Assembly: GCF_003334385.1 (NCBI RefSeq)
Contig: NZ_QOWN01000006.1
Direction: 5' to 3' (one strand)
DNA: 64,000 bases
Source of the DNA: Escherichia coli
GTDB taxonomy: Bacteria > Pseudomonadota > Gammaproteobacteria > Enterobacterales > Enterobacteriaceae
The translations under genes were made by a program, and so were the position numbers. This document shows positions 33,451 through 34,087 of this stretch, one piece after another. Within the stretch, counting starts at the first letter, position 1, and each line of letters starts with the position of its first letter. The notes under the pieces were generated by a model. It made no database searches and had not been told where the DNA came from. It was given only the letters and a program-made list of their open reading frames with translations.

Positions 33451-33483
33451 AAAAAAAAGCAGCGGTACGTCGTTACCGCTGCT
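33451..33483 (-). terminator. Rho-independent terminator after flhC, within the motA 5' leader
   Basis: Minus strand: cagcggtaacgacgtaccgctg hairpin followed by ctttttttt. Confidence 0.8.
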
Positions 33484-33508
33484 GGAATGTTGCGCCTCAC
33501 CGTATCAG

Positions 33509-34087
33509 TTAAACAGCCTGTACTCTCTGTTCATCCAGCAGTTGTGGGATAATATCGGCAGGATTCTGGGAAAGTTTACGTCTTTTTACTGCCCGGGATG
33601 GCGGTTGACATAAGCTGCAGGCAAAGCTGCCAACAGGCTGGTGAGCGTGGGTAATAAAATTGCCGCCGCAGCAGTTGCAGCTGGAAAGTTGCAGTAATCC
33701 ACTTTCAACAAACCGCACCAATGTCCAGGCACGGGTTAATGCCAGCAGTGGTCCTTCTTCTGCTTGTGGGCACTGTTCAAGGTATAAACGGTAGGCTTTG
33801 ATCACCGCATCGACGCCATTACACAAACCGGTTTTCAGTAAAAACTGCCATGCATTACAGAACATCGAAGCATGAACGTTTTGTTCCCAGGTCATAAACC
33901 AGTCGGTTGAGAATGGCAGCATGCCTTTCGGCGGTGGGCTTCCGCGCAGTTCTTTATAAAGTTTTATCAGGCGTCCGCGACTTAACTGTGTTTCGCTTTC
34001 CAGCATCTGCAAACGAGCGCCCAGGGTGATCAATTCCATTGCCAGCTGAATATCCCGCGCTTCCTGAACAATGCTTTTTTCACTCAT
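33509..34087 (-). CDS. flhC: Flagellar master regulator subunit FlhC
   Basis: 192-aa ORF beginning [27 protein letters not shown]; zinc-binding cysteines near the C-terminus. Confidence 0.97.
33552..33578 (-). promoter_or_regulatory. Sigma-28 promoter for motA, located inside the 3' end of flhC
   Basis: Minus strand reads TAAACTTT, 11-nt spacer, GCCGATAT. Confidence 0.75.

Follow-up and report, generated by a model that had tools for sequence, protein, structure and literature searches.

The flhC–motA region contains a sigma-28 promoter and an intrinsic terminator

The window analysed here, a 64,000 nt stretch of an Escherichia coli genome (contig NZ_QOWN01000006.1), carries flhD, flhC and motA on the minus strand, with a spacer of 126 nt between the flhC and motA coding sequences. 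The genes, and the transcription signals that lie between the end of flhC and the start of motA, are as follows:

34440–34090 (−): flhD (open reading frame list)
34087–33509 (−): flhC coding sequence, with a TAA stop codon at 33511–33509 (open reading frame list and RefSeq annotation of the matching region)
33578–33571 (−): sigma-28 (FliA) −35 element TAAACTTT, overlapping the FlhC codons Arg-Lys-Leu-Ser
33559–33552 (−): sigma-28 −10 element GCCGATAT, overlapping the FlhC codons Ala-Asp-Ile
33483–33458 (−): terminator hairpin, a 10 bp stem (AGCAGCGGUA / UACCGCUGCU) with a 6 nt loop (terminator scan and fold)
33457–33451 (−): U-tract, U8 if the last stem base is included; termination site and expected Hfq-binding 3' tail
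33382–32495 (−): motA coding sequence, with a GTG start codon at 33382 and a Shine-Dalgarno sequence GGAAGGA at ~33396–33390 (open reading frame list and annotation)

A preliminary description of this DNA, made from the sequence alone, had placed a sigma-28 promoter inside flhC (33578–33552, minus strand), a hairpin and U-tract ahead of motA (33483–33451), and the motA start at 33382. Both promoter elements were found at those positions, the terminator scan returned the same hairpin, and a GTG codon is indeed present at 33382.

The two promoter elements are separated by 11 nt, and the whole promoter lies within the flhC open reading frame. Two of its bases depart from the sigma-28 consensus (TAAAGTTT-N11-GCCGATAA), and the end of GCCGATAT is 6 nt upstream of the transcription start site, the correct distance for a sigma-28 promoter. 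At up to three mismatches the sigma-28 motif is found five times in the window, against an expectation of 0.58; none of 100 shuffles reached five. All five matches are FliA sites detected by ChIP-seq, at tar, flhC/motA, within otsA, fliC and fliD (Fitzgerald 2014). The flhC match is represented in that data set by an identical 28-mer, listed as '(flhC)motAB-cheAW' and accompanied by FliA-dependent downstream RNA (Fitzgerald 2014). The flhC-internal promoter is the most conserved FliA promoter known, and constrains the evolution of FlhC at the Ala177-Asp178 sequence (Fitzgerald et al.).

The remaining sigma-28 sites have features of their own. The site at 28966–28992 (−) is a perfect match to the consensus, and is the tar-tap-cheRBYZ promoter of the ChIP-seq table (Fitzgerald 2014). 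The site at 36784–36810 (+), with three mismatches, lies inside otsA and corresponds to the orphan intragenic site '(otsA)' (Fitzgerald 2014); no stable RNA is known to be associated with it. The fliC (59365–59391, minus strand) and fliD (59484–59510, plus strand) promoters are divergent, and the −10 element of the latter reads GGCCGATAA here and GACCGATAA in MG1655.

The spacer itself was examined for additional signals. A scan for sigma-70-type promoters on the minus strand (32800–35300) found none, and published work locates the motA promoter within flhC, where it is common to MotR and motA (Melamed et al. 2023; Fitzgerald et al.); on these two grounds we reject a separate motA promoter in the spacer. 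The open reading frame list, which covers frames of at least 40 aa, contains no hidden small frame on the minus strand between flhC and motA. Finally, the 33483–33451 hairpin is the only terminator-like site that the scan returned between the flhC stop codon and motA. Its stem arms, AGCAGCGGTA (33483–33474) and TACCGCTGCT (33467–33458), form ten pairs, six of them G-C. Because no other terminator-like element follows the flhC stop codon, this hairpin must serve flhDC; we infer that, as the only available terminator, it also ends the flhDC operon, a point absent from the preliminary description.

The terminated transcript is the sRNA MotR

Four sigma-28-dependent sRNAs have been described, and MotR is among them (Melamed et al. 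2023, eLife 12:RP87151, PMC10578931). The preliminary description had recognized a leader sRNA arrangement of the MotR type, with an RNA of 90–100 nt. The object at this locus is MotR itself, and the published RNA, at 95 nt, falls within that range:

33545–33451 (−): MotR sRNA, 95 nt; +1 is A 33545, and the 3' end is in the U-tract at 33451
33501–33495 (−): seed GGUGAGG (+45 to +51); the M1 mutation changes GUG to CAC at 33500–33498

The identification rests on several direct matches: (i) positions 33545–33451 (−) match the published T7 template for MotR (Melamed et al. 2023, Supplementary file 3) at 95 of 95 nt, (ii) the cloning primer SM001, which defines +1, maps to 33545–33520, (iii) the MotR-M1 gBlock differs from the window solely at the three designed bases, 33500–33498, and (iv) the MG1655 RefSeq record (NC_000913.3) annotates an ncRNA, motR (b4828), at 1977208–1977302, which is the same interval by constant offset. 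Transcription starts in the 3' end of flhC, such that MotR +1 to +37 are the last 37 nt of that gene, including the TAA stop codon (RefSeq motR overlaps flhC by the identical 37 nt); the 3' end of MotR lies in the flhC–motA spacer, and the strand is that of motA. Of 5426 complete E. coli genomes, 5369 carry a 221 nt region spanning the locus (coverage of at least 80%), annotated there as flhC and motA.

Two further searches returned nothing of note. No Rfam 15 covariance model matched positions 30000–38000 at E ≤ 1, a result that is uninformative with regard to MotR because Rfam 15 has no MotR family. The fold of the whole RNA is not unusually stable relative to shuffles (z = −1.46), as expected of an sRNA that consists of a single-stranded body and one terminator hairpin. 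Nothing in the evidence contradicts the assignment, and we regard it as virtually certain that this interval is the E. coli motR locus, with a sigma-28-dependent start at A33545, MotR generated by termination, and readthrough into motAB-cheAW.

The strain that carries the locus is not K-12. Its fliC allele (57576–59288, minus strand) encodes 570 aa, against 498 aa for that of K-12. In addition, the flhD–uspC intergenic region (34450–35219) contains no insertion sequence, as compared with IS1H in MG1655; both states, with and without an insertion sequence, occur among complete E. coli genomes. An antisense RNA annotated in MG1655, AsflhD, would map to ~34419–34638 (+) of the window. The sRNA FliX, from the fliC 3' UTR, lies at ~57572–57380 (−), where published primers match 57549–57572 (with two mismatches) and, for FliX-S, 57459–57483 (with one mismatch).

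Published properties of MotR

The sigma-28 dependence, size, Hfq binding, targets and phenotypes of MotR come from the experiments of others on the identical K-12 sequence; the present analysis provides the identity, the anatomy, the statistical support for the motifs and the phylogenetic distribution. On northern blots, deletion of fliA abolishes MotR; a band of ~95 nt co-immunoprecipitates with Hfq, and longer bands have been attributed to readthrough of the MotR terminator (Melamed et al. 2023, PMC10578931). The ~95 nt band and its longer companions bear out the proposal of the preliminary description that transcripts either stop at the hairpin or continue into motAB-cheAW. The two outcomes that it named as refuting, namely a lack of any fliA-dependent short RNA and a motA start site past the hairpin, were in effect tested by the published work and did not occur.

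RIL-seq detected chimeras of MotR with fliC and rpsJ, and the seed around GGUGAGG pairs inside both coding sequences (Melamed et al. 2023, PMC10578931). Overexpressed MotR increases flagella number as well as the levels of fliC mRNA and S10 protein; with the M1 change in the seed, S10 up-regulation is lost together with the flagella-number and fliC effects (Melamed et al. 2023, PMC10578931). When introduced into the chromosome, the 3 nt motR-M1 change leaves MotR levels unaltered, but flagella are fewer, motility is reduced and flagellar genes are expressed later (Melamed et al. 2023). The sole published proposal for readthrough is anti-termination by S10–NusB; effects on motB and cheW mRNA are nusB-dependent (Melamed et al. 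2023).

Taken together, the locus is expected to work as follows. FliA (sigma-28) RNA polymerase would initiate at A33545, within the last 12 codons of flhC. A proportion of transcripts would end at the intrinsic terminator (33483–33451), giving the 95 nt, Hfq-binding MotR, whose GGUGAGG seed would pair within the fliC and rpsJ coding sequences and so raise flagellin mRNA, S10 and flagella number. The other transcripts would pass the terminator and become motAB-cheAW mRNA, such that motA would be expressed by readthrough.

The promoter is more widely conserved than the terminator

The distribution of the arrangement was surveyed in one genome per species, using a DNA pattern for a 10-residue FlhC peptide. 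Since this peptide is encoded upstream of the promoter, the search is unbiased toward the features under test. The survey returned 120 loci, 116 of which are true flhC genes, from ~45 genera.

The promoter, TAAACTTT-N11-GCCGATAx, keeps its codon offset in virtually every Enterobacterales locus of the 116; the exceptions are Gilliamella, Moellerella and two MAGs. The canonical terminator consists of AGCAGCGG...CCGCUGCU followed by U6–U9, and ends at +91 to +96. All Enterobacteriaceae genera in the sample have a U-tract terminator, as do Pantoea, Erwinia and Mixta. No such terminator was found at the flhC loci of Yersinia, Serratia, Rahnella, Ewingella, Rouxiella, Photorhabdus, Xenorhabdus, Providencia, Morganella, Arsenophonus, Edwardsiella, Hafnia, Dickeya, Pectobacterium, Brenneria, Lonsdalea, Rosenbergiella or Tatumella. 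In the survey, Yersiniaceae, Morganellaceae, Hafniaceae and Pectobacteriaceae keep the promoter and are missing the U-tract. As judged from these 116 loci, a discrete MotR-type sRNA appears to be confined to Enterobacteriaceae plus Pantoea, Erwinia and Mixta.

Many of the taxa without a U-tract have a hairpin at a similar place. In Yersinia, Photorhabdus, Xenorhabdus, Serratia, Edwardsiella and others (loci L006, L010, L002, L025, L031 and L027), the promoter is followed, ~60–100 nt downstream, by a stable hairpin that is without a U-tract. A separate irregularity was seen in Enterobacter cloacae DSM 26481 (L007), in which a frameshift and an extension affect the tail of flhC (…KLSGMLPILFHNCWMNRSNTLFNPNLWARFQQR*), and 10 nt, in place of 11, separate the promoter elements; the cause could be a genuine mutation or a fault in the assembly.

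The stem and seed were followed through 50 distinct, aligned sequences that bear the terminator. The terminator stem is paired in 95.8% of cells; its outer eight pairs are nearly invariant, its inner three pairs covary (16 double-change cells, versus 4.7 in shuffles), and its loop is free to vary. The core of the seed, GUG(U/A)GG or GUGG, is non-coding and is kept in most of the 50 orthologues. RNAalifold recovered only the terminator and a 3 bp hairpin at the 5' end, with a covariation term of almost nil.

Since the promoter extends to many more taxa than the U-tract terminator, it is older than the discrete terminated sRNA, and the two distributions fit the sRNA having arisen on top of an older mRNA leader. 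The same reasoning can be taken further: if the promoter is conserved beyond the terminator, then its primary, ancestral job is motA expression, and if the hairpin is the sole terminator-like element after flhC, then its job is to serve flhDC. The short RNA would, in that case, be a functionless by-product of imperfect readthrough between a plain motAB-cheAW promoter and a plain flhDC terminator. This explanation has already been largely refuted by the motR-M1 phenotypes, which appear with MotR at its normal level. MotR is, moreover, bound by Hfq and found in chimeras with fliC and rpsJ, and its seed core is retained in most orthologues in spite of being non-coding. We consider a mere by-product very improbable.

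A candidate anti-terminator helix

Folding of the MotR sequence revealed a second helix that can form in place of the base of the terminator. Its two strands are:

33541–33534 (−): 5' strand CUGCUGGA, MotR +5 to +12, in the FlhC codons Leu-Leu-Asp; holds the MotR* site, +6 to +8 (33540–33538)
33486–33479 (−): 3' strand UCCAGCAG, MotR +60 to +67; overlaps the first 5 nt of the terminator 5' arm

CUGCUGGA is the exact reverse complement of UCCAGCAG. In RNA prefixes of 67–82 nt, which contain the 5' arm of the terminator and not yet the 3' arm, the helix forms with a predicted probability of ~1.0. In the full RNA the terminator fold (−26.9 kcal/mol) is ahead of the fold with the alternative helix enforced (−23.1 kcal/mol) by 3.8 kcal/mol. 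Exchange of helix pairs for terminator pairs carries almost no energy cost, the states lying between −16.8 and −17.7 kcal/mol; for this reason, the terminator pairs next to the U-tract would be only partly occupied. Computationally, then, the leader has a feature of attenuators: two mutually exclusive helices share the 5' arm of the terminator, and the upstream helix is the first to form during transcription.

The energy with which the 5' arm is occluded is −10.3 kcal/mol, compared with −4.9 ± 2.5 kcal/mol in shuffles, and is similar across orthologues. It was attained by 30 of 1000 shuffles, and a complement of at least 8 nt arose in 78 of 5000 (1.6%). These controls are modest (p about 0.02–0.03), and the anti-terminator is offered as an unproven hypothesis. 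A generic measure of occlusion, which counts how many bases of the 5' arm are expected to pair upstream in the prefix fold, did not reach significance: 289 of 1000 shuffles attained the observed value, and the prefix-fold probabilities are therefore not used as stand-alone evidence. The findpath barrier from the co-transcriptional fold to the terminator fold was 6.2 kcal/mol for the wild type and 5.6 kcal/mol for MotR*, which fails to separate the two; a kinetic trap is not claimed.

Comparative evidence for the helix comes from the same 50 orthologues. Within them, 99.3% of helix cells are paired, and the 5' strand is invariant save for one compensated change: G11 to A, accompanied by C61 to U, in loci L013 and L103. 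The UCC at +60 to +62 is conserved though it is non-coding and outside the terminator stem. In Erwiniaceae, further non-coding bases on the 5' side of the 3' strand extend the helix to 9–11 bp. A complement of at least 7 nt starting at +5 is present in 52 of 53 terminator-bearing loci, while in terminator-less taxa, including those with an identical 5' strand, it is just the 4–6 nt expected by chance. In the terminator stem (33483–33474 and 33467–33458 here, and the equivalent positions in orthologues), the outer eight pairs (AGCAGCGG/CCGCUGCU) are invariant across two families; the candidate anti-terminator would account for five of these eight, leaving C68–G70 and their partners.

Both strands of the helix are, however, under other constraints, the 5' strand as FlhC coding sequence and the 3' strand as part of the terminator stem. 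Each could thus be conserved for an independent reason, and the complementarity between +5 to +12 and +60 to +67 could be a coincidence, with readthrough set by protein factors (S10–NusB) alone. Several observations are in line with this possibility. Firstly, the effects on motB and cheW mRNA depend on nusB (Melamed et al.). Secondly, Yersinia, Photorhabdus and Pectobacterium conserve the 5' strand to the same degree without having its complement. Thirdly, a complement of 8 nt or more is not vanishingly rare in shuffles, and the barrier estimate does not discriminate. Against coincidence stand the conserved UCC, which neither of the two other constraints explains; the lengthening of the helix through non-coding bases in Erwiniaceae; the matched changes at positions 11 and 61; the strength of the occlusion relative to shuffles, and its similarity across orthologues; and the greater abundance of a mutant in which the helix is removed (MotR*, see below). 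On balance we judge control by protein factors alone to be slightly the better side of an even bet. The S10–NusB and RNA-helix mechanisms are not mutually exclusive.

MotR* is a chance mutant, TGC to GAG at +6 to +8, that was reported as "a more abundant derivative" with no explanation offered (Melamed et al. 2023, PMC10578931). According to our folding, the mutation destroys the helix: it hits three of the eight helix positions, and the occlusion energy drops from −10.3 to −1.1 kcal/mol. With the helix gone, the base of the terminator has no strong competitor left; the fold of the 5' end also changes. Changes at the 5' end often alter the decay of sRNAs, and the abundance of MotR* may accordingly reflect RNA stability or altered initiation at the plasmid promoter (through, for example, a lost RNase E site or the changed 5' structure), with no relation to termination. 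The original report, in which the greater abundance of MotR* is stated without a mechanism, is compatible with such an effect. What speaks against it is the placement of the mutation, which falls exactly on helix positions and eliminates the one strong rival of the terminator base. We view an effect on stability or initiation as a serious possibility, if somewhat short of an even chance.

A tentative model for the terminator as a possible context-dependent switch

The helix may compete with the base of the terminator, and may thereby determine what share of transcripts terminates and what share reads through. Under such a model, CUGCUGGA would pair with UCCAGCAG as soon as the latter emerges, as an isoenergetic rival to the five stem pairs that adjoin the U-tract. 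On the untranslated sigma-28 transcript, the helix would permit substantial readthrough into motAB-cheAW. On flhDC mRNA, ribosomes on the FlhC Leu-Leu-Asp codons would block the helix, and the hairpin would terminate flhDC efficiently. The MotR terminator would then be more than simply leaky: it would be a switch, tuned and dependent on context. We put this forward tentatively, as a reading of the folding and alignment data that is possible but on the doubtful side. If true, it would allow one hairpin to be both a good flhDC terminator and a permissive leader, and would explain both the greater abundance of MotR* and the invariance of the terminator arm across two families. No proposal of an RNA anti-terminator or attenuator at motA was found in the literature, and the 3'-end mapping paper of Adams et al. 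2021, with its supplements, contains no mention of motA, flhC or motR.

Relation to known systems

MotR has already been published, characterized and annotated; its recognition here is correct, and is not new. What the analysis adds is minor, and consists of (i) the phylogenetic limit of the terminator, and (ii) the candidate alternative helix. The first indicates where MotR-type regulation should, and should not, be expected. The second bears on a point left open in the MotR paper: how the balance between MotR and motAB-cheAW mRNA is set, and for what reason MotR* accumulates. The case also illustrates that a real regulatory RNA can be recovered from sequence alone, as was done in the preliminary description.

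The closest known system is K-12 MotR (b4828), to which the present locus is alike in all 95 nt of the RNA and in its promoter, +1, seed, terminator and position between flhC and motA. There is no difference within the sRNA; only the surrounding strain differs (the 570 aa fliC allele, and no insertion sequence upstream of flhD). UhpU, FliX and FlgO, from the study that described MotR, resemble it in being FliA-dependent, Hfq-binding, and derived from mRNA UTRs of the flagellar regulon. They differ in that all three derive from 3' UTRs (with FliX and FlgO being processed), whereas MotR is a primary 5'-UTR transcript that arises by premature termination; furthermore, MotR activates flagellar synthesis, while FliX represses it. 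With attenuators and other sRNAs generated by premature termination in 5' UTRs, MotR shares a promoter in common with the downstream operon and an intrinsic terminator ahead of the first coding sequence. Computationally, it also shares with attenuators a mutually exclusive upstream helix predicted to sequester the terminator 5' arm. The MotR leader differs from attenuators in being without a known sensed signal and without a leader peptide; the 5' strand of its helix is, on flhDC transcripts, the translated end of flhC.
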